From NCBI GenBank assembly GCA_963555755.3, contig OY820905.2:2496001-2560000 (forward strand): a stretch of 64,000 nucleotides of DNA. Reading direction: 5' to 3'. The notes under the pieces were generated by a model. It was not told the DNA's origin. It did not search any database and saw only the letters and a list, made by a program, of their open reading frames with translations. Numbering within the stretch: position 1 is the first letter of the stretch; each line of letters starts with the position of its first letter. The translations under genes were made by a program, and so were the position numbers. This document shows, in pieces, positions 25,030 to 62,594 of the stretch. The stretch is from Nitrospirales bacterium (lineage in GTDB: Bacteria; Nitrospirota; Nitrospiria; Nitrospirales; UBA8639).

Positions 25030-26801
25030 GGATCAATCGCACTTTTGGTGGAGTGGGGGTAAACGGTGAGGGGAAGAAAGGAGGGAGCATGACCGGATGG
25101 ACACCACCGATGAACGTCAGATGCTGGCCTTCTTCTTACCCGAAGGCCCCTTGGAGTATTTCGAGCTGAGTCGAGGCACGAAGACGGCCCACGCGATCCA
25201 CTTGGTACTGGAAGAGAAGAATCACCCTCCGCTGGCGGATGCGCAGCCAGGCCCACGCGTCTGGTCCAAAGGATTCCAGGACAGCACCATCACCGATTGT
25301 CCCGCCAGGGGCCGACCCGGTTCCCTCACGTTTCGCCGCCGGCGCTGGCAGGTGGAGGGCGAGCCCTCGCTTCTGACGCGCGCCATGGCTCTTCCGGCCC
25401 CCGGGACACAACTGGCGACGGAATGTGCGGCTTTTGTAAAAGCACGCGGCTGCCCACAAGCCGCGGGCCTGGGCCACGATTGCCGAGGCTCATTTCCTGG
25501 ATGCCACGGGGGTTGTGCGGCACTACCGCGAGCCTCGCAGCGACGTCCCCACGTGGGAGGCGCGCACGCATGCCGCCGCATGGCTCGTGTTTCCGGAGAA
25601 CGTGGGGAGGCACGTGCGCCTTGCTGCAGTGGCAAGCAGCCAAGGCGAGCGCGACACCGTCCTCACGAACAACGCGCGCCACGGCAAGCACGGCGCGCTG
25701 GTTGCCATCGTCAAGGGCCCCAAGACCGAGGTCGTCAGCGAGGGCTTGCGCCGGATCCCTGAATCCATACGAGAGACGGGCCAGCCCGTCACCCGCGATC
25801 TCGACGCGAGTATGGCACAGCTTGCAACGGTCTGCTTCCCGAATGCGCAGCAGAGCGAGGACCGCGTCCAGGTCCAGCAACGCGTTTCTGAAGCGTTCCA
25901 GGAAGTCCGTGTGGCCTTGCGCAAGGAGGCGATCACGGACGACAACGCCCAGGTCAAAGCGGCTCGGGAACGTGGGAGCCACTCCCAGGCCCCCCGCTAC
26001 GAGAATGGGGATACCCACAAGGCGGTACTGGCAAGCAGTCGCGACCTGTTGTTCAAGGCGAGGAGCACATGGACCGTCTCACAGCAGGAACGGGGCGCCA
26101 TGCTCTTCTGCGAGTATCCCGTGCGACAGAAAGCCTACAACCGCTCCATGATGTTCCGGGGAATCTACGAATACTGTGAGACGCAAGGCCATGCCCACGA
26201 GAAGTTGCAGGAGTGGGACAACAAACTAGGGAGCATACAGAATCTATGGTTCTATCCTACCGCCATCCAATTCTGGCCCCATGGAGTTTCTTGGCCATGG
26301 CGTTGCTTCCTGTGAGCGTTCTTGCTTGTGTCGCTGCACGATCTTCTCGTGCCCTCTTCCCACGGACCAAGGGGCTATGACGCCAGGAAGAGGCAGCATG
26401 AGATGCGGCAGCGACCTAAAAATACAAGACGACGCCATTCGCTCAAAAGGAGAGGCGACATAACCCACGAGGAGTGCCATAACTTTATGTGCACCTGATC
26501 GTATTGTGCTGCCAGAACCCTAAATTCTGCATGATCCCAAACTAGACACCTCCATTGAGATCCTGCCGGCCTGCGAGACGCCGATGCAGAGGATCAAACT
26601 CCATGAGACAACCATCTTGCACTCCTTTGATAGCCGGCGGACCACTGCCAGCGCTGAATCGTGTCATGCAAAGAGTAAGAATTTCCGTGCGCTGCAGCGA
26701 GGTGTCCGAGGGGTGCCCTTTTTCCTCTACCGCCTCGCGAAGATCTACGGCTAAGAACATGAAGGATGGTACCCTGGCTCCACCAAAATTGCGATTGATC
26801 C
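25030..26801 (+). mobile_element. Degenerate ISL3-family (ISAon1-like) element, copy 1
   Basis: 24-bp TIR GGATCAATCGCA(C/A)TTTTGGTGGAG; fragmented transposase (FFLPEGPLEYFE..LEEKN..RRRRW; WLVFPENVG..DLDASM..FPNA). Confidence 0.85.
26229..26538. mobile_element. 310-bp MITE nested in ISL3 copy 1
   Basis: Imperfect 25-bp TIR GGGAGCATACAGAATCTATGGTTCT / AGAACCCTAAATTCTGCATGATCCC; AAACTA duplicated on both sides. Confidence 0.8.
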
Positions 26802-42420: not shown

Positions 42421-42466
42421 AGTCACCTCGCTCACTGATGGGTGTTGTCAAGTTAACGTGCGGCAA

Positions 42467-42720
42467 GGCGTTGTTACACAATTGGCCAGTGATGTTGGGT
42501 GTCGTGACAATGGCTCATGGCACACCACGCATACACCTTCCGATACCATGTTCGTAATTGGTCCCATTATAATCAGGCCCTCATTGCTCGGGGCGGCATT
42601 ACCTTCTGGATCGATGAAGCCGCACTCCCGACATGGCGAAACACCCAGACTCACAGTGGGTCTGGTGGCCCTAGAATCTACTCGGATACGACAATTCACT
42701 GCACGCGGTGGTGGTCAAGA
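42467..42720 (+). pseudogene. IS5-family (IS903-like) left end and transposase fragment
   Basis: GGCGTTGTT end; YHVRNWSHYNQALIARGGITFW...GGPRIYSDTTI. Confidence 0.8.
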
Positions 42721-42736
42721 GCGTGTCCCGCCTCAG

Positions 42737-43245
42737 GGTGTTGTCAACTTAACTCGTTTTTGCCAGACTGGCGTGATGAAAACCAAAAAGCCCAGCTACC
42801 ACCGCCATCGTTTTCCTTCTGAAATTATTAGCCACGCCGTCTGGTTGTACCATCGTTTCTGCCTCAGTTTCCGTGAAATCGAAGAATTGCTGGCCGAACG
42901 TGGCATCACCGTCACCTATGAAACCGTTCGTCAATGGTGCCGAAAGTTTGGGGCAGCCTATGCGCGGAAATTGAAGAAACGACAAGGTCGTCTCGGTGCT
43001 ACGTGGCATCTTGATGAAGTGTGTGTGTCCATCCAAGGCCAACCGCAGTATCTCTGGCGAGCCGTGGATCAAGACGGCGATACCATTGATATGTTGGTGC
43101 AACGCCGACGTAATACACAAGCAGCGGTGCGTTTCTTCCGCCGCATACTGAAAGACCAAGGTCATGAACGCGTTGGATGATCACCGACAAATTCAAAAGC
43201 TACGGCGTCGCACACCGGGCCGTCATGCCGACCGTCGAACCTATC
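42737..43245 (+). pseudogene. IS6-family element, frameshifted and truncated
   Basis: End GGTGTTGTCAACTTAA (an extra end-like copy sits at 42441); YHRHRFPSEIISHAVWLY..WHLDEV..YLWRAVDQDG. Confidence 0.85.
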
Positions 43246-43264: not shown

Positions 43265-44733
43265 CAATACTGTTCACTTAGATATCTTCGGTGGTTTGAT
43301 GGATGGTGTCCAGTCAATTTGCGCAACGGGCGGTCTCGGACGTTTGTACGGTGCGTATGGAGAGTTTCGGCGTTTCACCATCCTCGGCTTGATTTTTCCA
43401 CGACTGGATTCACACAACAGTTTCGCCGTCGCCTCAAACAGCAGCCGATACCATGTTTTTTGGCGCTCAGGGGGGAAGGGCCCCAGATTGGGGCAGGGTT
43501 CGACGCACTAACTGCACCGTGGCCGTAAAAGATACCGTGCGGTCAGGGATGTCTGCCTGGGTGGCCCCTTGATACATCAACCAGCGCACGGCGTAGTGGG
43601 CCATCACCCATCCGTAGAACTCTTGACGCACCAACTCTGGCGTTTTACTGCGCAGGACGCGACGACGTTGCCTCAGGTGCGTCTTCAGCTCATCAAACAC
43701 CAATTCCACCTCCCAGCGCTCGTGATACAGTTGAGCCAGGTCCTGGGCGGGTGCGCCTTGGTCATCCAGCAGCGTGGTGACGAGACGGTACAGCGGTTCG
43801 CTATTGGGCCCCTGCGGTAAGACATACTCAATCACCCTGATGGCGATCCCATCAATTCGCTTTCTTCTGGCGCGTTCACTGGGATACAGATGGCTCAGGT
43901 ACGAGCCATCGTCCAACAGCTTGTCAACTGGAAGGATCAAGCTCTTCGGCATGCGCCAGAGTAGTTGCGCTCCGGTCTGAAGGCCGGCCTGCCAATGGGC
44001 GTACCCGACAAAGCCGCGATCGGCCATGCAGAGCATGTCGGGCGTGAGGCGACGCACCAAGGGCGCGGCCACCTCCCATTCGGCCTGCTTATAGGCCCCT
44101 AGTTCGGCATCCAAAATGGCGTGACTGGCACATTCCGTCAAAATGGCGCACTGGGCTTGGGGGTAGCCGGCCTGCCCGGTTCGGCTCCCTGGGTACCCAA
44201 AGACTTGCACATTGGCTTCCTCATCCGGGACCTCAAAGTTGGAGCCATCTATCGCGACGAGTCGGTAGCCTGCAAAAAAGGCGTGGGCATGCTCTGGACG
44301 AGCCAACGGGCGCAAGCAGCGCTGTCCAATGGCTTTCAGCGCCTTCCACGTCAGCCGTGAGCGGGCTTTGCTGATGGCTGATTTGACAACGGTCACGGGA
44401 GCAACGGGTTTGTGGTCTTTCCATGCCAGCCCTTGGGCCACAGCGGCAAACACCGCTTCGTACGCGGCCTCGCTGTATAAGCTCAACGCCATGGTGTAGT
44501 ACACCACGGCAGAAGCGGGAAAGGTGCGGACACGTTCACTGTTACAATGATGTGCGTCAAGTTCTTCGTTGATGATGGCCACCGGAAAGGCACGAGCCAG
44601 TAATCCCGTGCTCAAATAATCCGCCAATCGAGCCCCCGCCCCCAAGCCGACTTTCTTTCTTGCCATGTTGCCTCCTCCCAGATTACGTGTGGAGGCGAAG
44701 TATAACAGATTTTCATCTAAGTGAACAGTATTG
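43265..44733 (-). mobile_element. IS4-family element; transposase 43274-44666 with a +1 frameshift in a G6 run at 43470-43475
   Basis: Perfect 19-bp TIR CAATACTGTTCACTTAGAT; 10-bp TSD GGTCGGGTCT; LVAIDG, MADRG, YHERWEVE. Confidence 0.92.
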
Positions 44734-44850
44734 GGTCGGGTCTTGACTTAATACCTTTTTTCGCTCGAGCCAGCCGTGGCTGGCTTTCCTGAGTCTGGCT
44801 CAACATTCCACCATACCGATTAATTCCACATCATAGGATAGACCAAAAGA
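44734..44850. repeat. Family C repeat (inverted) interrupted by IS4
   Basis: GGTCGGGTCTTGACTTAATACCTTTTTTCGCTCGAGCCAGCCGTGGCTGG; its first bases lie at 43253-43264. Confidence 0.8.
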
Positions 44851-44964
44851 ATAGAAAAGGGTAGAGTAGAGCACTGGTGCTCACCTGGAGCTACTCTCGA
44901 ACGCTTCGACGCACGCGTCTACCACGGACCATAGCAGTCAGGAATTCCCAGCGCCCCCTCATCA

Positions 44965-46960
44965 GTAGGGTCGAGGACTGGCGCGCCAACGGTAGGGTTC
45001 GGTGGCTCCTCCACCCCTTTCGGAATGGGCCTCAGTCCGACTCCCCTGGTCACGGTTCCAGCCCCCGCCACCTCAAACCCGGCGTGCTGATTTCCAGCAC
45101 CGGGCTTTCCTGGATGCTTCACCTCAAGGGTTATGTGACCTATCGGTCTGGAAGTGCTTTCATGCCGACCCGCTGTACCGCACTCGGTAATCTCCATATA
45201 AGCCGAGTACCGTGTAGAGCCAAACCTTACTCCACCTCTTCCAGCCAAAACCTCGACGGTGGCGCACTCGCATCATGTGCCGCCGGACCTTCCGCTCCAC
45301 CCAATCCTTCACGTAGGATAAACACCGACTCGCATGCCCAATCCGAAAGTCGTTCACCCAGCCCCGTACGATCGGATTGATCATCGCGATCATCCGTCCC
45401 ACCGGCTGGGATTGCCCGCGTCGGAACACCTCCTTGAGCTTCCGCAGCAACGCGGTGCGCCGCTTCACCTTCGGTATGTACTGCGGGCGCCACACCCCAC
45501 GTCGCGACCGCACACGCCGGAAGTCAAAGCCCAAGAACCCGAAGCTCCCTCCCTGACTCAGGTCCACGATCCGGCTCTTCTCCTCATTCACCTGAAGGGC
45601 TCATTGGGCCAACGCCTCTCGCCGCTTCCGCTCCGCGACCTGCGCCAGTTGTGCGTGGCGGCGATAGCCATCCACTAACACGACGAGGTCATCCGCAAAC
45701 CGGGCATACTCGAGATACGTATACTGGCCCTGCCGGGTTGTCTCCTTCAGCTGCTCCAGCATCTCATCCACTTCCGTGAGATAGAGGTTGGCCAGCAGCG
45801 GGGAAATCACACCCCCTTGAGGCACCCCACGCGGGCCGGACGCCTTGACGATGAGTTTCACCAGCCGCAGGATCGCGGGATCCTGGATGCGTCGGGCCAC
45901 CTTCGCCAGCAGCCGGTCATGCCGCACCGTGTCGAAGAAGGCCGCCAGATCCACATCAATCACTCGCGTCTTGTTCTGCACCATCGCCTGAGCCACCCGG
46001 CCAATCGCCTGATGGGCTGTTCGTTTCGGTCGATACCCATACGACCCATCACGAAAATCCGCCTCAAAGATCGGTTCCAGCAGGAGCTTGAGCGCTCCCT
46101 GTACCACGCGGTCCCGAATCGCGGGTATCCCTACGACGCGGACTCGTCCACCGCCTTTCGAAATCTCCACGTGCCGGTTCCGCATCGGTCGGTAGGTCTG
46201 CGTGACCAGTTCGTCCCGTAGTCGTGCAAGAAAGGGCTCCACCCCCGTGGCCTCGATGACCGCAAACGTCACCCCATCAATGCCGGGGGCTCCGTTGTTC
46301 TTCTTCGCCATCGCATAGGCCGCGCGTAGCGTCGCCTCTTTGCACACGTGGATGTACAGGCCCCACACCCGCCATCGCTTCTCAGCCTTCGCCTTGACGT
46401 ACAGCCGCTGTCGCAGGTCTTGCAGTGAAATGGACGCCGTTGTCATCTCGTCCCTGCCTCCCATGTTGATCGCAGCCTACAGCCAGTAGGGCTCCTTTGC
46501 TCCACAGGCATTACCCTGTTTCCTCGCTCCTACGAGCCCCTCCGCCACCCTCTCGTCTTCGGCTCACTTCCCAGAGAGCTGGTTATAGAGCCGAAATCTT
46601 CCTCCAGGGATTTCTCCCTGGGACGAGGAGGGCTTCTCCAGTTGCGTCGTCTGTCCTTGCTCCCGTGCTGTCGCTCTCACCCCGCCGGAGTGGCCAGGCG
46701 TCTCAGCCTTGGTTCGCCTGTCCATGCCGTCTTCGTCCTACGGTCAGGGACTCGACCTCCGAGGTTTCATATTTTCGAGGCTACCACTGCGTTCACTTTC
46801 GTTACGGCCCGGGAACTCGCTTACCATCCCCGACGATGGCTTTGTCGATGGGCTTCAGCGTCTCGGTTTCTCTCCACGCTGCCATCCAAGCTACAGGGCT
46901 CAGGCTCTTACCCTGGTGGGCTTGCTTCCCACTGAACAGTCTCGCCTTACCTGGACACAC
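44965..46960 (-). mobile_element. Inner group II intron (twintron) inserted at the 3' end of the outer intron's domain V
   Basis: 5' GTGTGTCC; domain V AAGCCCGGTGCTGGAAATCAGCACGCCGGGTTT; domain VI ends CCCTAC. Confidence 0.85.
45160..46446 (-). pseudogene. ltrA: Group II intron reverse transcriptase/maturase (no endonuclease domain) with an in-frame TGA at 45601
   Basis: GAPGIDG, IPAIRDRVVQ, PQGGVISPLLAN, RFADD, FLGF; the reading frame continues past the stop. Confidence 0.88.
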
Positions 46961-47618
46961 AACCGTGCGTATGGTTTTCCCATACACGGCTTTCCGATGT
47001 TCTTCTTCCAGCGGCATGCGTCTGTCATCAGGCAATAGCCAAATTCAGACTTGGCCTTCTGAGATAGTTTCCTCTGTAGTGTCCTGATCGTGCTCGGGGT
47101 GGTTAGCGCAATGGCAATCCCCTGATCCTCCACTCGTCGGAAACGTGAACAAAGTAGGGTCCCTTCCCTCGGGCCGGGTTGTGTTGTCCCAGGCTCTCCA
47201 ACGGTACGATGAACCCCTCCGACTCCCACGACGGCCCGCAGCGATTTCGGTATCCCTTATACGCCTCAGTTGCTGGTTCTGCGCCAGCACCGTCGCGGGT
47301 CTCCCGTCCTGCACGGTGTCTCTTCCGCCACATGCCATCCCTGCTACCCCGGAAGATCCTGAGGGTGGGTGTTCGTTCTGCTCCCTCAGACAGCGGCCTT
47401 CCCCTTCTGACCACAGGGTCGGCATCTCCAATTCGTTTACGAGGCTACATCTAGGTTCGCTTGCGCTACGGCCTGCGGCTTCGCCCATGGGAAACTTCAA
47501 CCCCTGATTACTCAGACGCCGCTTCCCGGTACTAGAAAGGTGTACGAACAACTCCTTTCGCGGGACTTCAACCCGCGAGACACACCGCCGATGACGGCAT
47601 GCGGTCAGACCCGGTTTT

Positions 47619-50882: not shown

Positions 50883-51287
50883 TCAACCAGTTTGGGCAGA
50901 TTTTTGCTCGTAAAACCAACCGAAGTACACTAATAGGTCACGCAGGGTGACTATCCCGATCACTTTCCCTGCTTCACGGACAACCAGATGACGGACCCCA
51001 AGATCTTTCATCATTTCAAGGGCATTCTGAAGGCTGTTGGTTCCCTCGATACTATGGGTAGGGGAGGTCATCACATCCTTTGCGGTAGTCGTCGCGAAAT
51101 CCTTTCCGTGAGCCACCACTTTTCCAATGATATCCCATTCGGTCACTATTCCAACAATTTCTCCATTCCATTCTACGAGAAGAGCGCCTACTCGATGATC
51201 ACGAAATTTTTGTGCTACCTCAACGATTGATGTTTGAGCCTGAGTTTTTTTGAGATACCGGCTCATGACCCGGGAAAGTGTGGGCAT
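50883..51287 (-). CDS. CBS-pair protein
   Basis: VGALLV..GIVTEWD..VRHLVV..GIVTLRDL. Confidence 0.88.
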   Translation of the reverse strand: MPTLSRVMSRYLKKTQAQTSIVEVAQKFRDHRVGALLVEWNGEIVGIVTEWDIIGKVVAHGKDFATTTAKDVMTSPTHSIEGTNSLQNALEMMKDLGVRHLVVREAGKVIGIVTLRDLLVYFGWFYEQKSAQTG

Positions 51288-51446: not shown

Positions 51447-51605
51447 AGGGTTCGCGCAAGAATAACTTCACATTTGGGGGTGTTGAGACGCCTGTCTGGC
51501 AAGGCGCGAGGACTGCGCATACTCCTCGTATGGAAGGGACGAGCAACGCCGCCAGACGGGATGGATCGACGCCCAAAGATGTGAAGTTATTCTTGCGCGA
51601 ACCCT
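51447..51605. repeat. MITE-like repeat family D copy 2; overlaps the stop codon of the YHS gene
   Basis: Reverse complement of 35103-35261. Confidence 0.85.
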
Positions 51606-52017
51606 AAGTTTCGGTGGAACAACACCCCGCCTGGCCGAATACGCCTTCGTAAGGGATCTCACCTTGTAATCGTTTGACGTAATGATCAGGATCCTTTTGA
51701 AACACTTCCGGACAATACGGGCATCGGCAAAAAAACACGTCCCATCCCCGGATTTCCATGCGCACGGTCCACTGTACCGGTTTTTCCGCTAAACAGGTGG
51801 GGCACACAACGAGGTCACGGGTTTCCTGAAGGTATTTTGAAGGTTCCTGATCAAAAAGATCGGCGCAACCCTGGCAGCAAAAGAAATACTCTTTGCCTTC
51901 GTAGTGGCTTGTGGCCCAGCGATCCGCTCCGATTCCCAATCGGATCAAAGAACAACCACAGGTGGGACAAATGGAAGTGACTATTGTTTTTGCCGAGCTT
52001 GAGAGGTCACTTGTCAT
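51604..52017 (-). CDS. Cys-rich tandem YHS/TRASH-domain metal-binding protein
   Basis: CPTCGC...YEGKEYFFCCQGC..F..EPSKY and CPTC...FFCRCPYC..F..DPDHY; C-terminal GCC. Confidence 0.8.
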   Translation of the reverse strand: MTSDLSSSAKTIVTSICPTCGCSLIRLGIGADRWATSHYEGKEYFFCCQGCADLFDQEPSKYLQETRDLVVCPTCLAEKPVQWTVRMEIRGWDVFFCRCPYCPEVFQKDPDHYVKRLQGEIPYEGVFGQAGCCSTET

Positions 52018-52195
52018 TGCTTTGGCCTTTTTCTTTTTCACTCAATTCAGCGTAACCTGATGATTCCTTTTTTTTGGGAAATAAATCCACCACGAAATCA
52101 ATCAGTGATTGCAATTTGCTTCTCGTGCATTCACAGGCTTCTTCATCAGAAACGCTTTCTTCTTCTACCTTGTCCCAATCCACATATTTTTTCAT
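52007..52195 (-). CDS. Small acidic protein coupled to the HgcA-like gene (not a ferredoxin)
   Basis: 62 aa, ATGA overlap with the upstream stop, one CxC, no CxxCxxCxxxC. Confidence 0.55.
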   Translation of the reverse strand: MKKYVDWDKVEEESVSDEEACECTRSKLQSLIDFVVDLFPKKKESSGYAELSEKEKGQSNDK

Positions 52196-53061
52196 AGCAA
52201 CAACGTGCCTCCATACACCAGAGCCAAAAAAGCGAATATCCCGGCAAAAAGCTTCCCGGACTTCTGATTTTGCCCTAAATGTGAATGACCTTGCGCATCA
52301 TAGCCAATATAGGCGCTCAAAGCCATAATTCCCATGGAAGCCTGGATTTTCAAAACCGGGTCTGTTTCGGAAGTCAATATAAGAGCCAGCACCGGCAGGG
52401 AAAGCACTAGCCCTTTGTATAGCAATCTATCTATCGGAATAAAATGCTCAATTAATTGCATGCTGAAAGCAAAGTACCAGACTAAAGCAATTCCTTGAAT
52501 CCACCAATCGGAAGCGAACATAAGTATTGGGAGAATACAGACTAACGTGCAGAAAACGGCATGACTGAGACCCATTTTAAAACGCTCCCAATACCCATAT
52601 TCTAGTGCCTGCATATCCTTATTTTTGGTCAACCCATTATTTAAAAAATCCTTTAAATCAGTAAAATACACCGGGCCATATATGCCTTCCCAGCCTTGCT
52701 CTTTAAGAGCTTTTCTTTTGATTCCAGACGCGGACAATTGCGGCAGTATTAACCGATTATGATTGACCCGTTCCCCTACATTGTAAACCTTCAAGTGGGA
52801 AAGAACTGTTTCGGCTGTAAAAATACGTTCGGCAGCTGCACACCAGACATTGGTTCCGTTTGTATTGACGACTAAAAGAAAACAATCTAAAGCCTCTTTT
52901 TCCAGATATTCCTTGAGATGTCTCACCGTATAATCGAAATTACAGGTGACGAGAATAGGGGAAGATTTGTCTGGGTTGCCGATAGCCACTGTTTCAGGTT
53001 CACACGGAAATCGGACAAATCGAAAAAGGGTTTGATAGATGTCTTTAATCCAGCCAATCAT
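52192..53061 (-). CDS. hgcA: HgcA-like corrinoid-binding membrane protein
   Basis: GNPDKSSPILVTCNFDYT, cap helix GTNVWCAAAE (canonical G[IV]NVWCAAGK), LILPQLSASG, GPV..DL..FL, followed by several TM helices. Confidence 0.82.
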   Translation of the reverse strand: MIGWIKDIYQTLFRFVRFPCEPETVAIGNPDKSSPILVTCNFDYTVRHLKEYLEKEALDCFLLVVNTNGTNVWCAAAERIFTAETVLSHLKVYNVGERVNHNRLILPQLSASGIKRKALKEQGWEGIYGPVYFTDLKDFLNNGLTKNKDMQALEYGYWERFKMGLSHAVFCTLVCILPILMFASDWWIQGIALVWYFAFSMQLIEHFIPIDRLLYKGLVLSLPVLALILTSETDPVLKIQASMGIMALSAYIGYDAQGHSHLGQNQKSGKLFAGIFAFLALVYGGTLLL

Positions 53062-53690
53062 TTTTTAATTTCTAAAAGAATAAACATGCCCAACATAAAT
53101 GATTTGCAGTTGACTATGGTCATACCCGCTTCCCGAACATCATCATCAAAATTGGAAATCGCGTTGGTTGTGGTTTGAGTGATAACCCAAGTAAGAAGCC
53201 GCATAGGTAACCTGAATGCATAGTACAAACATTTGGCTAAAATATTTTCTGGAATCATTTCATCGCCAATAAGAACTTTCCCCCCATTTCTTAAAATTCT
53301 TTTGATTTGCTTCAATACATGAATCCGTTCCGCGCGAGTCAGTTCGCTGAAAGCAAGAGTGCTCAAAATAATATCGAATGACTCATCTCCTAAATGCTCA
53401 TCGAGGTTACCAAGGCTAATATTCAGGTAGGTTGCTGAGGGCGAATTTCTCTTTGCCACAGCAAGCATGCCGCTATTGGCATCCACGCCCGTCACCACGG
53501 CTCCTCGCTCGATACACATTTGGGCCAGAGTTCCGGTGCCACAACCCAGATCGAGAACTTGATTTCCGGGGTGAATGTGTTCGGCGATTTGCATTTTAAT
53601 TTTCGTCAACGTTCCCAGAGTCAAAAGACTCATCCCTAGATCGTAACGTTCAGGACGGGATTCAAGAATTTTCATGTACACAAACGACAT
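53058..53690 (-). CDS. Class I SAM methyltransferase (UbiE-like, corrinoid-protein-associated type)
   Basis: MSFVYMKILESRPERYD, VLDLGCGTG, GVD, FDIILSTLAFSEL; ATGA overlap with the hgcA-like start. Confidence 0.85.
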   Translation of the reverse strand: MSFVYMKILESRPERYDLGMSLLTLGTLTKIKMQIAEHIHPGNQVLDLGCGTGTLAQMCIERGAVVTGVDANSGMLAVAKRNSPSATYLNISLGNLDEHLGDESFDIILSTLAFSELTRAERIHVLKQIKRILRNGGKVLIGDEMIPENILAKCLYYAFRLPMRLLTWVITQTTTNAISNFDDDVREAGMTIVNCKSFMLGMFILLEIKK

Positions 53691-53814
53691 TAAAAAGACC
53701 TTCAACAAGTATTCAGAGTTTAAAAAACAAGAATAGTTGTAAACTTGACCACCCAAACCGTTGATCCTAAGCCTATAATGCAAATAGACTTTATGCGTTT
53801 CCCACACCTGCTTA

Positions 53815-55856
53815 GGACCCGCGAGAAAATAACTTGATCAATATCGCGCCAAGATTTGGGTCGGATTTGGACGGAACGATTGAGAAAAACTCGAGGCATA
53901 GCACAGCTATGGTGAGGGTTTTTCGATTGAGGCCCGTTCAAAGATGGCCCGACGGATCTTCCCCCGAGTTTTGGGCGGATTTTTGGCTCTAACCTTTTGA
54001 TGTCATTGAAGAAGTCACGGTTTGGGCGAGGCCACGTCTCTGCCTACACATGCACCTTGGCTGGCCGTGTGGTGGTGGCAGGCGGGGTGATCCCCAATGC
54101 GGCAAAGATGGTTGCCTGCCTAGCATCGGGGCGAGCCAGCTGAAGCACCTCCTGCCCGCCGATTGCATGGCGTTGGAAACACAATCGTGACAGGGCCCCC
54201 AGGGCGTCTTGAAGGGTCAGCGCCTGGGCGCTCTGCTCCGTCGTCCCAAACGCCTCCTTCAGGCCTCGCTCGCCTTCCCGGGCCACTTTCAGGGCGAGCA
54301 TCGCGGCAAAGACATGGCCACGCGTGCGGCTCTCCTTCCGCACAAAGATGGGGCGCAGTTCGAGCAAGCCCGTCTTCATCGTCCGGAAGTCGCGTTCCAC
54401 CCGTTGCAGGTCCCGGTACCGGGCATCCACCGTCGCGGCATCCATCGTGTCCCGAGCCACATCGGTTTCCAGCACCGAACAGCCATCCAACAGGGCCGCC
54501 TCGGCCTGCTTGGCCTCATCAATCTCGACCACAAGCTGGGTCCCCTGCAGGGCGAGGGTGGTGAAGGCGGAGAGCTTGTGCTTCTTGGCCCACTGGGTCA
54601 GCTGCCGCTGTCCCGCCGCCGGGGTGGCCCGCTTGGCCTTCTGGACAAACGCATTGCGCGCCGCGACCTTCTGCTGCAGTGTGGCCACTTTGTCCTGACG
54701 TCGCGTGGCCACCGTGTGGCGCAACGCCTCATTCCGCCGCAGGATCAGCCGACGAGACCCATCCTCCACTTCCTGTATCGTCTCATCAAACAAATTGAGT
54801 TGGAGCACATCTTTCTTCAGCAAGGTGCGAATCTGCGGGTCAGTGAGGGCGGTGAGGGCGGTGAGGTACTTGAGTCCCTGCTCGGTGAGGGCCGCCTTGC
54901 CTGCGGCTTTCACCATCCCCCGATCCCCCACACACACGACGTCGGTGATCTTGAACTGGGTCTTGATCCGTTCAATCTGCTCGGCGACCGTGCGGGGATC
55001 CGCCGTATTCCCCTTGAACACCGTGACGGCCAGCGGCTCACCATCCGGCCCTGTCAGCAACCCAATCACAATCTGCTTCTTGTGCTTCTTGCCGTCCCGG
55101 TTATAGCCATACGCCGCCAGCTCATTCTTCTCCCCCTCAAAATAGGAGGAGGTCACGTCATAGAGCACCAAGACCGGTGGCTGGCCGGTCCGCTGGACAG
55201 AGGCCCGATACAGTTTCTTCTCGATGGCTTCTTGTTGGATGCCCAACCAGTCTAAGGCCTCGTACAGGTCATTCTCGTCAAAGGCGGGCAATCCCAACAC
55301 CTCAGCGACCGCATGATCGGTGGCCCACCGCACGGCTGACAGCCGCGAACCCTGATGAGCCACTCGTGCCAGCACCAGGAACAGGGCGAGCTTGGCTACT
55401 CGTTTCGGACCCAAGGCCGACACCACTCCCACCCGTTGGGCCACCGCTTTCAGGGCGAAGAGGACGCCAAAGATCCGATCACTCACGGGGCCCGCCTCGT
55501 CTTCCGTTCCATCGAAATCCCCACGGAGGCAGCGCTTGAGCGCGTCTACGCGAGCCGGAGGCCACGAGGTCAGATTGGCCAGGGTCCGGGTCTTCACCTT
55601 GCCGCCCGCTCGGTAGCTTTCGCGCAATAAAATGGCGGGCGGGGAGGTGCGGTTAGGAACGGTGGCGATATACATGCTTTATGTATAGCATAAATAAAGC
55701 ATTATAGTCAAGATAAAACAACAATTACATGCCTACATTACAGAGAGCAATCCAATCTTTCCCTGAAGAATTCCAACAGCTTAGGTGGCAAACATGGGGG
55801 GAAGATCCGCCCGAAGATTGGATGCGAGATTGACCAAGTTATTTTCTCGCAGGTCC
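53815..55856. mobile_element. ~200-bp MITE-like element, itself interrupted by IS1634
   Basis: About 30-bp TIR GGACC(C/T)GCGAGAAAATAACTTG(A/G)TCAAT; TTA duplicated at both flanks. Confidence 0.72.
53963..55798 (-). mobile_element. IS1634-family element, transposase ORF 54044-55675 (ends approximate)
   Basis: LLRESYR..GKVKTRTLANL, LYDVTSSYFEG, GYNRDGK, VGDRGM, VERDFRTMK. Confidence 0.9.
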
Positions 55857-56106
55857 TTACTCTTAATATGTCTTCAGAAACGGAACTCATTTCGCAGCAT
55901 TCCTATAATTTTCCGTCCACGGCGATCGCGGGAATCCTTTCAATTCCGTACAGGGCCGCCTTATGTTGAATGTCCTTATTAGGGTCCTTGGTTAAATCAT
56001 AAATAACGACCTCACACGATGGACAAGCCAAACTTTTCACAAGGTCCACCGTTGACTCACAAATGGGACAACCACTTGTAAAAACCTCAACAGTTCTTTT
56101 TCGCAT
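55857..56106 (-). pseudogene. Thioredoxin/glutaredoxin-like protein with an internal TAG and its 3' end cut by the MITE
   Basis: VEVFTSGCPIC..ACPSC..IPAIAVDGKL*ECCEM; an AGVGNA* tail lies beyond the insertion near 53790-53811. Confidence 0.7.
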
Positions 56107-56161: not shown

Positions 56162-56872
56162 TTAAGCGGTGATACTTTTTTTATGCTCTAAATAAAATTC
56201 TTTCATCTCTTTGTTAGCCGATATCGTGGTTGCAAGGTTTGTCAAGAAAGAATCTATTTCTTTGCAGTTGAGTGTGGCCAGAATGTGGTCATCACTGACT
56301 TCGGTGAAAGTCCGCATTCCAGTGCAACCTAAGGACATGCCAAAAGGCGAATTATCCAAGGTGGTTGGAATCACCGCGCAAGCCGGACGACCCAACGCCA
56401 TGGATTGCATGCTTTCAGACCATTTGCAGCATCCCAAAACTTCGTTGTAAATCATCGCCTGTGAAGGCTTTAACCACATCAGGATCAATTGGGGCTCAAC
56501 CGGAAAATCTTTTAACGGTCCATACACCACACCAGCTTTTTTCTCTTTAATGGTTGGGATATGTGCTGGCTCATCTTCTGACAGGTAAGAACATTCACAC
56601 ATTTTTTTCACCAAACCACCCAGTTGTTCCTGTACCTCTTTGGGCATCTCGAACCCCAACACCATGGCTCCTATCGGACAGTTAAAATGCTTGGCTGCCG
56701 GCGCATAGAACGTTTTTTTCTCTGCGACTCGCCAAAATGTACAGAACGAGGGGAATTCGCCTTCGATAGACTCCACTCCCTGCGGTTGATCATCAACAAG
56801 GGCCATCGCTACCGGGGCAATTTCAAGCCCAAATGCTGATGTGATTTCCTGATTCGTTTTTGCATTATCCAT
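56162..56872 (-). CDS. DUF169 family Cys-containing protein
   Basis: PVAM..SFCTFW..NCPIG..YGPL..PACA..SLGCTGMR. Confidence 0.75.
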   Translation of the reverse strand: MDNAKTNQEITSAFGLEIAPVAMALVDDQPQGVESIEGEFPSFCTFWRVAEKKTFYAPAAKHFNCPIGAMVLGFEMPKEVQEQLGGLVKKMCECSYLSEDEPAHIPTIKEKKAGVVYGPLKDFPVEPQLILMWLKPSQAMIYNEVLGCCKWSESMQSMALGRPACAVIPTTLDNSPFGMSLGCTGMRTFTEVSDDHILATLNCKEIDSFLTNLATTISANKEMKEFYLEHKKSITA

Positions 56873-56947
56873 GTTCGCCTCCCAAAACTAGGGTTTTAAA
56901 GGGTGGGTAATTCCTATCGCACCATTGATAATTTTTAAACTTGCTAT

Positions 56948-57110
56948 TCCCCGTAGCTAGCTACGGAGTGACCAATGAGGCCTGCCCTGAGTCATATCGA
57001 AGGGTCCCCCCTTTGGAAAATCCCCCCATCCCCCCTTTTGCAAAGGGGGGCAAGGGGGGATTTAGGATTCCGATTTTCCATTAAATACCCCGTCAGCTTG
57101 CTGCGGGGAT
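56948..57110. repeat. REP-like palindrome cluster between merR and DUF169
   Basis: CCCCGTAGCTAGCTACGG, CCCTGAGTCATATCGAAGGG, CCCCCCTTTTGCAAAGGGGGG, CCCCGTCAGCTTGCTGCGGGG. A related CCCCCCTTTGGAAAAGGGGG motif occurs at 62875-62928. Confidence 0.6.
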
Positions 57111-57150
57111 CTTCATATCGCTTAGAGGCTCTTTCAAAAGAAAAAGTTTT

Positions 57151-57561
57151 TTATAGCTCTCTCCCTGATTCGAAACTGCAAAGGATGGGACAGTCGCCCG
57201 TGAGCGTTGCTTCTTGGCATTGGTGAATCATTTGCTTTAAAACCTTTTTCATAGAGTTGAGGCCTTTGATTTTCTGATCCACTTCGTCCAGTTTTGTTTG
57301 CGTTTTTGCCAAAACCGATTCACAACTTTCGTTTTTTTTAACCCGCAATTTCAGAAGTTGCAGAATCTCATTAAGCGTGAATCCCAACTTTTTCGCATTT
57401 TGAATAAAACGAATTCTGGCGGCATCTTCCTTGGAATAGAGTCGATAACCGACTTCGGAACGTTTGGGAGGGTCGATCAGCCTCCTCTTTTCGTAATACC
57501 GCAACGATTCGATATTGACCCCGCATTCCTTTGCCAATTTACTTCGTGTCATCGTCACCAT
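57151..57561 (-). CDS. merR: Hg(II)-type MerR family regulator
   Basis: wHTH LAKECGVNIESLRYYE, GYRLY, LGFTLNEI; three Cys positioned like MerR C82/C117/C126 (ESCE, QCQE, DCPIL). Confidence 0.88.
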   Translation of the reverse strand: MVTMTRSKLAKECGVNIESLRYYEKRRLIDPPKRSEVGYRLYSKEDAARIRFIQNAKKLGFTLNEILQLLKLRVKKNESCESVLAKTQTKLDEVDQKIKGLNSMKKVLKQMIHQCQEATLTGDCPILCSFESGREL

Positions 57562-57581
57562 ATTTTTCTCCTAATGTATAG

Positions 57582-57613
57582 AACCTACACCCTGTACCAC
57601 AGTACAGGGTCAA
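57582..57613 (-). promoter_or_regulatory. MerR-type promoter/operator
   Basis: Minus strand TTGACC-20 bp-TAGGTT with the dyad ACCCTGTAC-N4-GTACAGGGT spanning the over-long spacer. Confidence 0.88.
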
Positions 57614-57626
57614 GGGGAAATTAGGA

Positions 57627-59213
57627 CCCAAGATCCGCGATGGGTTTGGTCAACAGAGGTCCTTTGGCAAAACCCACGTGTTCGCGCCGTTGCTTAGTCA
57701 ATGGTCTGGCTGGATTTGAGCCACCTCCCAGAGTTGCCTGTCCTGACATGGGATCGACCAGCCTTTTGGGCAGACCACTCCCTTCCTGCTTCCTTCTTCT
57801 CTTGTGCTGTCCCCTGCCCCGGCTTAATAAGGCTGGGCAGCTTCTGCACAGCGCGTCCGAATCTCCTCACACAAGCCCCACAGCTGTTGTTGCACTTTGA
57901 GGATCACGGCACCAGCATGCCGGACCACTTTGCCCGCCACCTGATACAGCCGCCAACGCACCGTGCGCACTTGGCACTGGCTCCAGGCATAGGGCAACGC
58001 CAACAACTTGAACAACACAAACAGGTTGTAGGCTAACACGCCAATGCGAAAGAAGACGGCATTGGCCGCGAAGGTCCCACACGGAAGCCGTTCCATGCCA
58101 AAGCCACTCTTCAGTTCTTTGATGCGATTCTCGCTGGTCTCGCCCCGCTGGTTGTACCATCGTACAATCTCCTCAGGGGTTCCATCTCGGTTCGTCGCAA
58201 TCAGCGTGTAGCGCAGGCTGGGGGCCTCGGGGGCAAACAGATCCTGTTGCACGGGCCGTCGCAATACGATGAGGCGAAAGGCTTGCTTGGTCTTCGCCAT
58301 ACAATGTACCGTTTCAGCGAGATGGCCATCTCGGTAGGGTTGCCACTGGCTCTCAGGGATGGCGGCAATGACGGCCTGCACGGCCGTATCCTGCACGCCC
58401 CCAATCGCAAACGTCACGTTGTGCTCCTCGCACCAATTGAACAACTCCGCTTGGTACGCCGCACTATCCGCCCGCACATGAGCAATCCGTTTGCCTTTGG
58501 GCATCTGCGCCGCACACGCCTGGGTGAATTCAAGATTGCGGGACGCCGGAGCCTCATTCCCTTCACGAAACTCCTCCCCAAGCACCAGCCCATTTTCCGC
58601 CAGGTGCCCCAGCATCGGCAGATAGCCTCGCTCCCCCTTGTACGTCCATTTGGCTGCCTGCTTCTCCGCGACAATCTGCGTGGCATCAAGATCGAGGGTA
58701 TAGTCCGTGCGCGGTTCCCGCTTCAACGCCCGCCGGATCTGCTGCTGATTGACGACGGCTAAACTTGCTAAACCATCCTTCTCCCCCATGCGTCGCAGCC
58801 AATCGCCCGTGGCATCGGCACTGGGAACCACGGGGAGTCGCAGCACGGCCCGCAAGCCCGCATCCTCGCGAATCTGGCGCAGATCCTCCAGCGTCCGGCC
58901 CCCGCCATGCAACATCAGCAGCAGGGGCTCGACAAATTGGGCGGGGTGATAGCCGATGCGGCTCCCGGGCGCGGGCAAGGCCGCATTGAGTTGCCGGGGC
59001 ACATTCATGGCTTGGAGAAACTCCCCGAACAGCGCCAGCCCGCCATGAGCGGTGAGCTGTTCGTCGGTGGGCTCAAGCTTGAACGGAAGAACGGTTTGTG
59101 GCATCATTCGTTTCACCTCGTTGGTGAGGAGTGGCTAAGGGGGTGGGCACCCGTATCTTAGCAAATCAACGAGGTTTTTTTATGCCCAAAATAAATCCAT
59201 CGCGGATCTTGGG
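57627..59213 (-). mobile_element. IS1380-family element, intact transposase 57824-59116
   Basis: 17-bp TIR CCCAAGATCCGCGATGG; 5-bp TSD TAGGA; LTAHGGL, LDLDAT, RADSA, YNQRGETSENRIKELK. Confidence 0.92.
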
Positions 59214-59264
59214 TAGGAATTTTTTATTTTTAAAGGATGGAAAAGGAATTAGTCTCGAAAAAAA

Positions 59265-59744: not shown

Positions 59745-62594
59745 ATGAAATCCGTATTGAATATCGTTCTGTTTGCGGTGTGTGGTGGTCTCGTGGCCAT
59801 GAGTCCTCTGGCTATTTCCTGGGAAGACAGCCTCTATGATCAGCGCATGATCTGGTGGGTCGAGCGCCATCCCCGCAGCGCAGAGATCGTGTTGATCGGG
59901 TTAGACCAGCCCCCACGGGACTATGTGTGCGGGAGTTTTTCGACCCGCGATCAACCCACCGCCCATACGCCACTGGCCGGCATGCTTGAGGCCCTGGACA
60001 AGCTATCCCCAAAGGCCGTGGCACTGGCGTTTCATCTACCGGACTGTGAGGCCCTTAAGCATCTGGGCGCAAAGTTGGCCCCCCTGCGAAATCGAGGCAT
60101 TCCGCTGGTATTGATTCCCCCGAAACCGACATCCGGTGAACGCAATATTCCCAGGACCCTGTTACTCCAATCTCTGCACATCGAAGACGACCCCGACTGG
60201 TATCGTGTCCAGTATGGCGATACGTTATCGACGATGGCCCAACGATTTCGCACAACGGTGGCCACACTCAAGGCCTTGAATCAATTATCAGACGATACGA
60301 TTCACATCGGACAGCGACTGCGGGTCAGTCAAAGAGCGGAAGGATTATCGTCCCCTCCCCCCGTCATGCACATGACGGCGATTGGCTCCCTCCAGGTGAA
60401 GACACATACCGCACCAGACGGGATCCTCCGAACGGTGGCATGGTCAGGCTCCAGTGTCCCTCCCGTCGGATCCGTCCTGGCCGATCTTCTGTCACCCGGC
60501 GGAGATACCCCCACGGACTCCACCCTCCGACTTCCTTCCGGAATTCCGGAGAACCGGACCTGGCACATTGCCTATAGTGAACCCTGGGACGGGACACCCC
60601 GACCGTTTCACTATCAATCTCTCGACAACTTTTCCGCCCTGGACGAACGGGCGAAGGAAGTCCTCATCACAGATAAGGTAGTGATCCTCTTCGACGCGAC
60701 TGAAGAGTTTCAGGTCCGCACGCCGCGTGATGAACGCGTCCCCCGGGCCTATATCCATGCACAGCTACTGCTCAATCGTTTGACGGGGATGACCATCACG
60801 ACGGCCCCCCCGTGGCAGACCGTGTGTCTGGTCCTTCTCGGCAGTGTCGCCATGGTGAGTCTGTATCGATTCAAGCATTACAGACGATGGAGCGACAGCA
60901 CCCCGGCCATCATCTGGTTGTATCCTCTCGGCTGGGCACTGCTGCTGGCCCTGATCTATGGACTGGGTCAGTACAAGGCGTTTCTGATGGCGCAGTACAT
61001 GGTCCCGGTCATCCCACCACTGGTGGCTATCGGCATCGCCGCTATAGGGGTCGCCATCCTCACGTGGCAACAGTCCTTTGCGCGCCTGGCCTCCCGGATG
61101 GAAGGCATGCAATCGGAACGGGATGCCATGCTCGATGAACGCGCCCGTTTACTTGAGACGGCGGAGGGGAATACGGAAGAGGTTCTGGAAATGAATCGCC
61201 AGTTGCATGAGAAAGATGCCGCCATTCTGCTCCTCAAAGTCGAGCAGGAACGACAGAAAAATATTCAACGAAAATTCCTTCCCCACACCGTTGCCCTGAC
61301 GCCATTACAGGATGCCGACATGGCCACGTTACAGCAGCAGGCTGCCGCCATGGGTATTCTGACCCGGGACGAGGGGATGTTACGAGCCTTTAACCAGCTT
61401 CAACAACTGGCCAATATTCCCAAGGCCCCCGTCTATATTTTCGGGGAAACGGGAACAGGGAAGGAACGGTACGCGAAGGCCCTCCACCTCTTGAGTGACC
61501 GCGCCAAAGGTCCGTTTGAAACCATCAACATGGGGGAACTCACCGGAGACAAACTCCTGGCGCGGCTGTTTGGACAGGAGAAAGGCGGGTTCACAGGTAT
61601 TGAAAGCCGCCAAGGTCTGTTTCACCTGGCGGATCAAGGCACTCTGTTCCTCGATGAAATTGCCAATCTCGACACGGAAGGGCAGCGCCAGATATTGCGG
61701 GTGTTAGAGAATGGCAGCTTTACCCCGCTTGGCGGAAGGGCCGCGGTGGTCACCGATGTGCGTCTGGTCATCGCCACGAATAAAAACCTGAAAAAAGAAT
61801 GGGCTGCCGGACGATTCATGGAGGATCTGTACCACCGTCTGACGCGTGGCGGGATCATCAGGCTCATTCCGTTACGGAATCGTGCCAGGGACGATCTCCA
61901 GCTACTGGCCGAATCGCTTCTCACCAACCATTGTCAGACCATCTCGCGTCTTCCTGTTCCCCGGCTGACGGAAGAGGCGCGGGACTGGATTCTCACGCAA
62001 CCCTGGCCCGGGAATATTCGCGAGCTGGATGGCGTCTTGTTCCGAAGCCTCCTGGCCAACCCGGACGCGTTGACGATTCAACAGGAGCATCTGGTGCACG
62101 CGGTCGATACCGACGTCACCCCCGCCCCGGGTGAACACGCTGCACCACCCACGGGTCCGGCCCTGTCCCCCGTCGTGCCTGACCCGTTCACCACCCCGAT
62201 GTCGGATGAACAGTTCATGGAATTGTTCTGTCAGTATCAGGGAGCCATCGGCGAGGTGGCGGAGCATCTGGGGTTGCACCGGGACCGTGTCCGGTTACGG
62301 GTGAAGGGATTGGCGTTGGAGGCCATGTGTCAGGGTGCGGGCCCCGACCACGAACAGAGTTGTGAGCGGATGCTCCGGGGCCATTCCCTATCCCGTGCGT
62401 CCCGGCGAAAGCTGGAGAAGAAATTGCAAGGATACTGGGAGACGTTCGTGAAAACCTGTCAGGACTGGACCTCACCGGAAGATGTCATGACCGCCATCTG
62501 GCAACAAAATGAGAATATGCCCTCCCGCAAACACTATCTCCGTGACCTGGACGCCTTCATCCAGCGACACTATTCCTCCCTGAGGGGCTGTTGA
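59745..62594 (+). CDS. Transmembrane sigma-54-type AAA+ activator with a CHASE2-like sensor and an inserted LysM domain
   Basis: EIVLIGLD and DKVVIL..TP..P..IHA (CHASE2-like); YRVQYGDTL..ALNQLSDDTIHIGQRLRV (LysM); three TMs; GETGTGKE, GGFTG, LFLDEI, WPGNIREL. Confidence 0.85.
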   Translation: MKSVLNIVLFAVCGGLVAMSPLAISWEDSLYDQRMIWWVERHPRSAEIVLIGLDQPPRDYVCGSFSTRDQPTAHTPLAGMLEALDKLSPKAVALAFHLPDCEALKHLGAKLAPLRNRGIPLVLIPPKPTSGERNIPRTLLLQSLHIEDDPDWYRVQYGDTLSTMAQRFRTTVATLKALNQLSDDTIHIGQRLRVSQRAEGLSSPPPVMHMTAIGSLQVKTHTAPDGILRTVAWSGSSVPPVGSVLADLLSPGGDTPTDSTLRLPSGIPENRTWHIAYSEPWDGTPRPFHYQSLDNFSALDERAKEVLITDKVVILFDATEEFQVRTPRDERVPRAYIHAQLLLNRLTGMTITTAPPWQTVCLVLLGSVAMVSLYRFKHYRRWSDSTPAIIWLYPLGWALLLALIYGLGQYKAFLMAQYMVPVIPPLVAIGIAAIGVAILTWQQSFARLASRMEGMQSERDAMLDERARLLETAEGNTEEVLEMNRQLHEKDAAILLLKVEQERQKNIQRKFLPHTVALTPLQDADMATLQQQAAAMGILTRDEGMLRAFNQLQQLANIPKAPVYIFGETGTGKERYAKALHLLSDRAKGPFETINMGELTGDKLLARLFGQEKGGFTGIESRQGLFHLADQGTLFLDEIANLDTEGQRQILRVLENGSFTPLGGRAAVVTDVRLVIATNKNLKKEWAAGRFMEDLYHRLTRGGIIRLIPLRNRARDDLQLLAESLLTNHCQTISRLPVPRLTEEARDWILTQPWPGNIRELDGVLFRSLLANPDALTIQQEHLVHAVDTDVTPAPGEHAAPPTGPALSPVVPDPFTTPMSDEQFMELFCQYQGAIGEVAEHLGLHRDRVRLRVKGLALEAMCQGAGPDHEQSCERMLRGHSLSRASRRKLEKKLQGYWETFVKTCQDWTSPEDVMTAIWQQNENMPSRKHYLRDLDAFIQRHYSSLRGC

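Follow-up and report, generated by a model that had tools for sequence, protein, structure and literature searches.

A predicted MerR-type switch, probably responsive to Hg(II), heads an HgcA-like corrinoid cassette in a Nitrospirales bacterium

We characterized a merR-headed gene cassette in a 64,000-nucleotide stretch of a Nitrospirales genome (hereafter, the window), and found that it probably represents a mer-like operon controlled by an Hg(II)-sensing MerR switch, with a predicted SAM/corrinoid methyl-transfer module standing at the place of merA. Promoter geometry, operator dyad, cysteine triad, gene order, conservation, two MerR lineages, and the merT-like and merP-like genes embedded in related cassettes were all observed here, and on the strength of sequence comparisons we hold with good confidence that Hg(II) is the main inducer of the regulator. 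The window cassette works like a mer regulon, yet it falls outside the reductive mer family, given that it lacks merA, and outside hgcAB, given that it lacks hgcB.

On the minus strand, a -35 box (TTGACC, 57613-57608) and a -10 box (TAGGTT, 57587-57582) are separated by a 20-bp spacer, and merR starts 21 bp past the -10 box, behind a putative ribosome-binding site (AGGAGA, 57572-57567). A perfect 9-4-9 dyad, ACCCTGTAC-TGTG-GTACAGGGT (57610-57589), overlaps the -35 box and is the predicted MerR operator; a dyad between the -35 and -10 boxes of a promoter with a 19-20 bp spacer is a MerR-family trait. The initial annotation had described TTGACC-N20-TAGGTT with a CTGTAC-N4-GTACAG dyad and merR (57561-57151) as the first gene behind it, all of which we recovered, the dyad being longer than claimed.

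The firmicute MerR signal as given in the text of Permina et al. (2006, PMC1526738), ACCGTGTAC-(4)-GTACAGGGT within a 20-bp spacer, differs from the window operator at one base. The window operator has the GTAC-N4-GTAC form found in Hg(II)-responsive MerR, and is unlike the ZntR and CueR signals in the text of that source (PMC1526738) and unlike the pbrA promoter. Among sites with a GTAC-N4-GTA core across the 4.6-Mb chromosome, only two lay within five mismatches of the firmicute consensus, namely the window site (one mismatch) and a site before a second merR (five mismatches); the pattern TTGAC-N-GTAC-N4-GTAC returned exactly the same two places. Operator counts from pattern searches are lower bounds, as several real promoters were missed in this way. 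Both sites precede merR genes, and the match in the window is more than chance. The mer operons of Staphylococcus aureus pI258 and Bacillus (merR1) likewise start with merR and have a 20-bp spacer that holds a 9-4-9 GTAC dyad (pI258, TTGACC-GTGTACTATGGTACAGGGTT-TATACT), and firmicute MerR has the same cysteine spacing (C79/C114/C123) and Cys-Pro as the window regulator. Unlike these operons, the window has no merA, merB or intact merT, its host is Gram-negative, and its regulator is 38-40% identical to firmicute MerR. Calling the promoter Gram-positive-style, as was done at first, is accurate for the signal that it matches, but describes a layout and not an origin. Nor is the merR-first arrangement with a 20-bp spacer a mark of Bacillus and Staphylococcus, since it also occurs in a Shewanella mer operon and is widespread in the host's phylum.

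In the 12 related loci whose regulator belongs to the type found in the window, TTGAC[CA] was always kept and TA...T at 20 bp in 10, the spacer being 20 bp in 10 loci and 19 bp in two. In L027 and L028 the dyad centre is one base shorter and the spacer measures 19 bp, a natural change from 20 to 19 bp inside a single regulator clade (type A, see below). A sigma-70/terminator scan returned eight promoter-like and three terminator-like matches, at or below chance; it allows spacers of 16-18 bp only, and is thus blind to the 20-bp-spacer promoter. By analogy with established MerR biochemistry, a MerR dimer would stay on the dyad and keep this promoter off without metal, and Hg(II), held by C115 and C124 from one subunit and by C80 from its partner, would untwist the spacer and switch transcription on. 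With merR as the first gene, the regulator would also control its own expression. The layout suggests that merR is co-transcribed with the downstream genes, possibly as one transcript running through DUF169 to a YHS gene. The promoter and the regulator themselves are ordinary MerR biology.

The regulator, which we termed type A (136 aa, 57151-57561, minus strand; Pfam MerR_1/MerR-DNA-bind), has an N-terminal MerR HTH, a coiled coil and a C-terminal metal loop, with cysteines at positions 13, 80, 115, 124 and 128. Its best PDB match was Bacillus MerR (4UA1), whose three Hg-ligand cysteines align with C80, C115 and C124, in agreement with the complete triad reported initially. These residues and P125 were invariant in all 46 aligned homologues (46 of 63 matches were aligned), and one genomic relative (L197) is without C80. 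Three cysteines at the 82/117/126 spacing, present in the window merR, are necessary and not sufficient for an Hg(II) response. The further statement that they define Hg(II) sensing fails, since the first cysteine or the triad marks divalent-metal sensors (accessible text of PMC9909328 and PMC3431237), PbrR (C79/C114/C123) has a spacing identical to that of the window triad, and ZntR has C79/C114/C124.

The regulator could instead be a divalent soft-metal sensor of other or broad specificity (Cd, Pb, Zn), with the cassette answering general thiol-reactive metal stress and the mer-like operator only reflecting the descent of the DNA-binding domain, which we consider improbable. The PbrR-like cysteine spacing is consistent with such a sensor, as is the nearly equal score of ZntR models (122 versus 127 bits for TIGR02051, the best NCBIfam match of the window merR at 127.1 bits, below its cut-off of 150.85). 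A genuine alphaproteobacterial mer regulator likewise fell below the TIGR02051 cut-off (135 bits), and for PbrR its own model (173 bits) outscores TIGR02051 (88 bits), a ranking opposite to that of the window merR that argues against a sensor for other metals. Related regulators head P-type ATPase, CMD/AhpD, DsrE, thioredoxin and NHL genes, and in L042 a GTAC dyad with the merR-first 20-bp layout precedes a copper-type ATPase, the regulator having Ser at position 80. This dyad, the triad common to PbrR and ZntR, and the ZntR score near that of TIGR02051 all count against Hg(II) sensing. PbrR, CadR and ZntR regulons have three cysteines in the same positions as the window regulator, but they differ in their dyads, in their targets, which are efflux ATPases, and, for PbrR and ZntR, in the Cys-Gly or Cys-Ser after the third cysteine. 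The cassette encodes no metal-efflux ATPase or CDF, and both of its regulator lineages are linked to merT or merA, with merT-like genes embedded in the cassette itself, which again speaks for Hg(II).

Eighteen GTDB loci carry the HgcA-like gene; three end before the upstream region, and the other 15 all have a MerR, four of them co-directional type A with a GTAC-type dyad and 11 a divergent type B. The type-A merR gene is broken in L013. Type B is ~37% identical to the window MerR, has a metal loop one residue shorter, and has a CTGTAG-N-CTACAG operator dyad with a 19-bp spacer; this dyad also resembles the pbrA dyad, a similarity that would suit a sensor for other metals. In a tree of 66 proteins, type A formed a clade (100/98) of unresolved deep position, the bootstrap not having settled, while type B formed a clade with four alphaproteobacterial regulators (98/97) and was nested among alphaproteobacterial mer regulators. 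A single clade of types A and B was rejected (p-AU 0.012), and thus the cassette recruited MerR twice. Type A did not group in the tree with firmicute MerR (Bacillus/Staphylococcus/Enterococcus), a grouping that was nevertheless not rejected (p-AU 0.45). In a quick tree, type A appeared as sister to merT-heading regulators from the host's phylum, a placement lost in the careful tree.

Both lineages have neighbours in mer operons. A blastn search of the type-B gene against plasmids gave no match and tblastn gave 208, of which the five examined all head merT-merP-(merF)-merA and share the CTGTAG-type dyad and 19-bp spacer of the cassette type B; two of the five are near-identical, and they are therefore not five independent cases. 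Alphaproteobacterial mer operons (divergent merR / merT-merP-merF-merA) represent the source lineage and operator of the type-B regulator; unlike them, the window has a type-A regulator. Among plasmid neighbours of the window regulator itself, only four of the nine examined carry mer genes, none of them above 45% identity, which counts against Hg(II) sensing. A search of a Nitrospinales family found DUF169 adjoining all 10 loci with a type-B regulator, and next to seven type-A loci DUF169 (two), NHL-repeat (two), thioredoxin (one) and other genes (two). Also counting against Hg(II) sensing, type-A MerR precedes an NHL-repeat gene in L085, L086, L194 and L196, where the operator is intact and a long NHL-repeat protein comes directly next, with DUF2703 and DsrE-like genes near in L086.

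Within the cassette, L028 (type A), L025 and L212 (type B) have merT-like genes with a Cys-Cys pair, placed after DUF169 and before cpaM, and an HMA gene follows the merT-like gene in L028 and L212 and stands ahead of cpaM in L029, so that these four relatives hold merT-like and/or merP-like genes. The initial view that the switch drives non-mer genes is accordingly correct for the window copy and not for these relatives. The embedded merT-like matches are weak (26-33 bits, Pfam cut-off 32.9; no NCBIfam match at 1e-12), which counts against our preferred explanation, as does the lack of hgcB. In L084, a type-A MerR 66% identical to that of the window directly heads merT-HMA (Pfam MerT 33.1 bits, above cut-off). 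Given that MerR is present in 15 of 15 relatives with visible upstream DNA, that it comes from two unrelated lineages, and that four relatives hold merT-like or merP-like genes, Hg(II) is the likeliest inducer. Its proposal as inducer of the HgcA-like cluster thus stands through the cassette context, the two arguments first given for it being insufficient.

In the host's phylum, merT, merF or merB lies within 1.5 kb of the regulator in 12 of the 29 next-closest MerR loci (11 by Pfam and one by tblastn; 300 genomes, 44 of about 70 candidate frames scanned); the others precede CMD, thioredoxin, DsbD or ATPase genes, or no readable gene. In two of 20 wider regions around related regulators of this phylum there was a merA with a terminal Cys-Cys, both times behind another, divergent merR. 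Also in this phylum (L163-L182), a merA-less operon, merR-merT/merF-HMA-CMD(AhpD)-DsrE, is common behind GTAC operators, with merB once and a SAM methyltransferase divergent from merR in six of 20 regions.

Downstream of merR, on the minus strand, the window cassette encodes a DUF169 protein (236 aa, 56162-56872; Pfam PF02596, E 7e-24), a thioredoxin-like gene (55903-56106; Thioredoxin_3) with a TAG at 55905-55903 ahead of a conserved ECC, the class I SAM methyltransferase cpaM, associated with corrinoid proteins (210 aa, 53058-53690; NF043040, 251.9 bits, cut-off 180), an HgcA-like corrinoid membrane protein (289 aa, 52192-53061; PF03599), a conserved 62-aa protein with CxC and no Pfam match (52007-52195), and a Cys-rich YHS protein, which we take to be of the TRASH type (51604-52017; PF04945). 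merT, merP and merF are absent from the window cassette. The Nitrospina-type set of merR, DUF169, methyltransferase, hgcA-like and YHS genes is thus found in one locus here, and the full ancestral operon may have comprised merR, DUF169, thioredoxin, merT, merP-like, cpaM, hgcA-like, 62-aa and YHS genes. After the cassette and outside its conserved extent, a CBS-pair gene (50883-51287) has a 96%-identical second copy at C1:980174.

The HgcA-like protein scored 228 bits on NF043039 and 130 bits on NF040863, both below cut-off, and by profile scores is closer to fused HgcAB-like proteins than to HgcA. It has the motif NVWC74AAAE, five C-terminal transmembrane helices and no ferredoxin tail, and its structural model (pLDDT 91.7) best matched the folds of the HgcAB model and CFeSP. 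The protein shares the corrinoid domain, the NVWC cap helix and five transmembrane helices with HgcAB of Pseudodesulfovibrio mercurii ND132 and other anaerobic methylators; the cap-helix motif N(V/I)WCA(A/G) of hgcAB reads NVWCAA in the window. In contrast to ND132-type HgcAB, the window protein has AAAE instead of AAGK, falls below the HgcA cut-off, lacks HgcB, has a SAM methyltransferase next door, and is under predicted MerR control, whereas HgcAB expression is reported to be Hg-independent (PMC9494745).

In the mechanism that we propose, MerT/MerP-like proteins, where present, would import Hg(II) and Cys-Cys proteins would pass it on; CpaM would load a SAM methyl group onto the Cys74-bound corrinoid, and mercury would be released as methylmercury. 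SAM is described as the methyl donor to the corrinoid in HgcAB (accessible text of PMC11588087), in line with a dedicated SAM methyltransferase whose gene overlaps the hgcA-like start codon, as it does in every locus covering both genes. The terminal cysteine pair of HgcB has been proposed to deliver Hg (accessible text of PMC7305189), and the C-terminal Cys-Cys of the YHS protein, present in the window and in 16 of 16 orthologues, mirrors HgcB C94/C95. Provided that the operon is under Hg control, we see methylation as a likelier output than demethylation or trapping, with its chances about evenly balanced.

Hg(II) might also switch the operon on while the corrinoid module serves to demethylate methylmercury, to trap Hg by thiol binding or to repair targets damaged by Hg, which is possible, if doubtful. 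The protein has neither a ferredoxin tail nor an HgcB reductant: hgcB was not found in the window genome (best match 36.8 bits, cut-off 99), nor was an HgcB ferredoxin adjacent or fused. True methylators need hgcB, and canonical hgcAB is reported to be neither Hg-induced nor protective (PMC9494745); methylmercury formation was not found protective in the accessible text of PMC7305189 either. The closer resemblance to fused HgcAB-like proteins points the same way, as the fused strains tested did not methylate according to the accessible text of PMC10083202 and bioRxiv 10.1101/648329. A search for merB in the window genome found none, a weak blank since it gave no match in any control genome. 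The overlap of the SAM methyltransferase with the HgcA-like start codon fits methyl loading instead, Cys74 and the transmembrane domain are kept, and the YHS protein retains its HgcB-like cysteine pair, all of which favour methylation over such alternative outputs.

The window copy has been disturbed by mobile elements. An IS1380 (57627-59213, minus strand; NF033539), one of seven near-identical genome copies, lies exactly 13 bp upstream of the -35 box (57614-57626) and is flanked by a 5-bp target duplication (TAGGA, 57622-57626 and 59214-59218); as first reported, it left the -35 box intact. It also displaced an A/T-rich tract, which lies upstream of the -35 box in alleles without IS1380 (L079, L080), was moved 1.6 kb away in the window, and may act as what we take to be an UP element. 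A dispersed palindromic repeat (56943-57111; 17 blastn pieces of at least 60 bp in the genome, own included) widens the merR-DUF169 gap to 278 bp, compared to about 149 bp in alleles without it, and is absent in L013, L079, L080 and run X2. A conserved merR terminator was rejected as an explanation of these palindromes, as they belong to an inserted repeat missing from close alleles. A 2-kb insertion (53814-55860; NF033559 and copy count) between the promoter and the HgcA-like gene consists of an element that we take to be a MITE and a nested IS1634 (about 53947-55813; transposase 55675-54044, minus strand) pointing the same way as the cassette. The presumed MITE is a roughly 190-bp element with 141 near-full genome copies, and IS1634 is apparently nested in it at several places. 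The window is very IS-rich elsewhere, with an ISL3 piece (25515-26315) and an IS240-type piece (42458-43180) in its left part, and an IS4 transposase with a fragmented group II intron reverse transcriptase at 43467-47551. At 1664-2933, a thiolase gene inside a fatty-acid/2-oxoacid catabolic cluster is split into two overlapping frames, and 59745-62594 encodes a protein of 949 aa that combines LysM, membrane segments and a sigma-54 activator domain, its full length being conserved in its cluster.

With these insertions, the promoter in the window genome could drive only merR, perhaps with DUF169, the rest being a decaying passenger cut off by repeats and IS1634, a possibility of some weight, though below an even chance. 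The 169-bp hairpin-rich insert in the merR-DUF169 gap (predicted folding of the gap -101.5 kcal/mol, versus -35.9 for the insert-free allele), the 2-kb MITE/IS1634 insertion and the loss of the A/T tract upstream of the -35 box are consistent with a cut-off operon. So are the TAG in the thioredoxin gene, a Gly79Arg replacement in the cap-helix region (62 of the 65 motif-bearing family proteins and 20 of 20 loci have Gly), and a Gly-Tyr in the 62-aa protein where 16 of 16 orthologues have Cys-Cys. Given that contigs of runs X7 and X11 cover the latter two places without differences, these are not assembly errors. The absence of merT from the window cassette, the broken thioredoxin gene, the insertion, Gly79Arg and the lost cysteine pair also weigh against our best explanation as a whole. 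The thioredoxin gene, intact in L014, L015 and L028 (89-90 aa), is also broken in L013, L018, L079 and L080 and missing from several loci, and is thus dispensable.

Against a severed operon, the terminator scan gave no terminator-like site for the minus strand in the stretch from merR to IS1634, and IS1634 runs in the same direction; termination at the merR-DUF169 palindromes, named initially as a refuting case, thus has no terminator-like match and would concern the window strain only. The cpaM, hgcA-like, DUF169 and YHS frames are open. In close-strain runs (two studies, one possibly the assembly source; run kind not on record), the empty site 53813/55861 was joined in X7, X9, X10 and X11 at a depth near that of the locus, one X9 contig spanning it, so the insertion-free form is the common one in four of four runs and the MITE/IS1634 insertion is not fixed. 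IS1380-free junctions were found in two of three runs mapped across that site (X9, X11). From RNA libraries, pieces of merR, DUF169, cpaM, YHS and the thioredoxin gene were recovered on contigs X1 and X3, and X13 covered almost nothing; these contigs carry no strand, level or co-transcription information and may be DNA, and were not used as expression evidence. Decay would in any case concern the strain and leave the family-level reading untouched. In the window genome, the switch looks intact and the cargo is likely decaying.

The host is likely a marine nitrite oxidizer. In RpoB it is 88% identical to the L013 genome, 83% to a record with the title Nitrospirae and 56% to two Nitrospinales genomes, and close protein clusters are named mostly Nitrospirales and some Nitrospinae. 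Given that its cassette proteins are 84-88% identical to Nitrospinales copies, against 56% for RpoB, the cassette likely moved between the phyla Nitrospirota and Nitrospinota. The HgcA-like gene was present in three of 115 genomes in the host's family, its own among them, and in 11 of 70 genomes of the Nitrospinales family searched, many of them incomplete; such Nitrospirota and Nitrospinota MAGs are listed as hgc carriers in the accessible text of PMC12484752. In the window genome (99.4% complete), none of 10 merA matches exceeded the TIGR02053 cut-off and the six best all lacked a terminal Cys-Cys. Likewise, none exceeded the cut-off in five of five cassette-bearing Nitrospinales genomes, the six top matches all being without a terminal cysteine pair.

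The second merR of the window genome (L001:6179-7136; C1:2257178 onward), with the promoter TTGACT-20-TATGCT, heads an intact thioredoxin-like gene followed by a merT-like gene truncated by a palindromic repeat, the only merT found in this genome; this region is a decayed mer-like locus. Type B is represented in the window genome only by a pseudogene fragment resembling it, away from the cassette. Divergent from this fragment (L001:8985-9365 and 9452 onward) is a 126-aa membrane protein with no Pfam match, a homologue of which (79% identical, L030:2685-3062) comes first among the genes separating type-B merR from DUF169; it is a candidate member of the Hg regulon.

The MerR switch, the firmicute-type operator, the Nitrospina cassette and the Hg-induction hypothesis were already known. 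Villar et al. (bioRxiv 10.1101/648329) described a Nitrospina hgcA-like locus with the same merR1, DUF169, 'ubiE' methyltransferase, hgcA-like and YHS genes, and hypothesized its Hg induction by merR; like the window cassette, it has no neighbouring hgcB (accessible text of PMC10083202). Unlike that locus, the window copy belongs to a Nitrospirales-like host and is IS-interrupted, and the accessible text of Villar et al. gives no operator, regulator types or embedded merT. In the openly readable literature, which leaves aside subscription papers and bioRxiv figures and supplements, we found neither the operator, nor the two regulator lineages, nor the merT/merP-like genes of the cassette in print.

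Tentatively, and with less confidence than in the Hg(II) switch, the cassette could be a true mer-type operon that ends in a SAM-fed corrinoid methyltransferase instead of MerA, providing aerobic marine nitrite oxidizers with an Hg-inducible, HgcB-free methylation route for mercury disposal, with Hg control kept through a swap of two unrelated MerR lineages and the whole passed between phyla. According to the accessible text of PMC10083202, the hgcA homologues of many marine waters are dominated by Nitrospina-type hgcA-like genes, which lack hgcB and whose methylation function is unconfirmed. An Hg switch recruited twice and recognizable at the operator level, together with embedded merT-like genes, indicates that this branch really deals with mercury. 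Should the cassette methylate, ocean methylmercury would have an aerobic source under regulation; should it demethylate or trap, surveys counting such genes as methylators would be wrong. The Hg switch points to a direct test of this suspected open-ocean methylmercury source.
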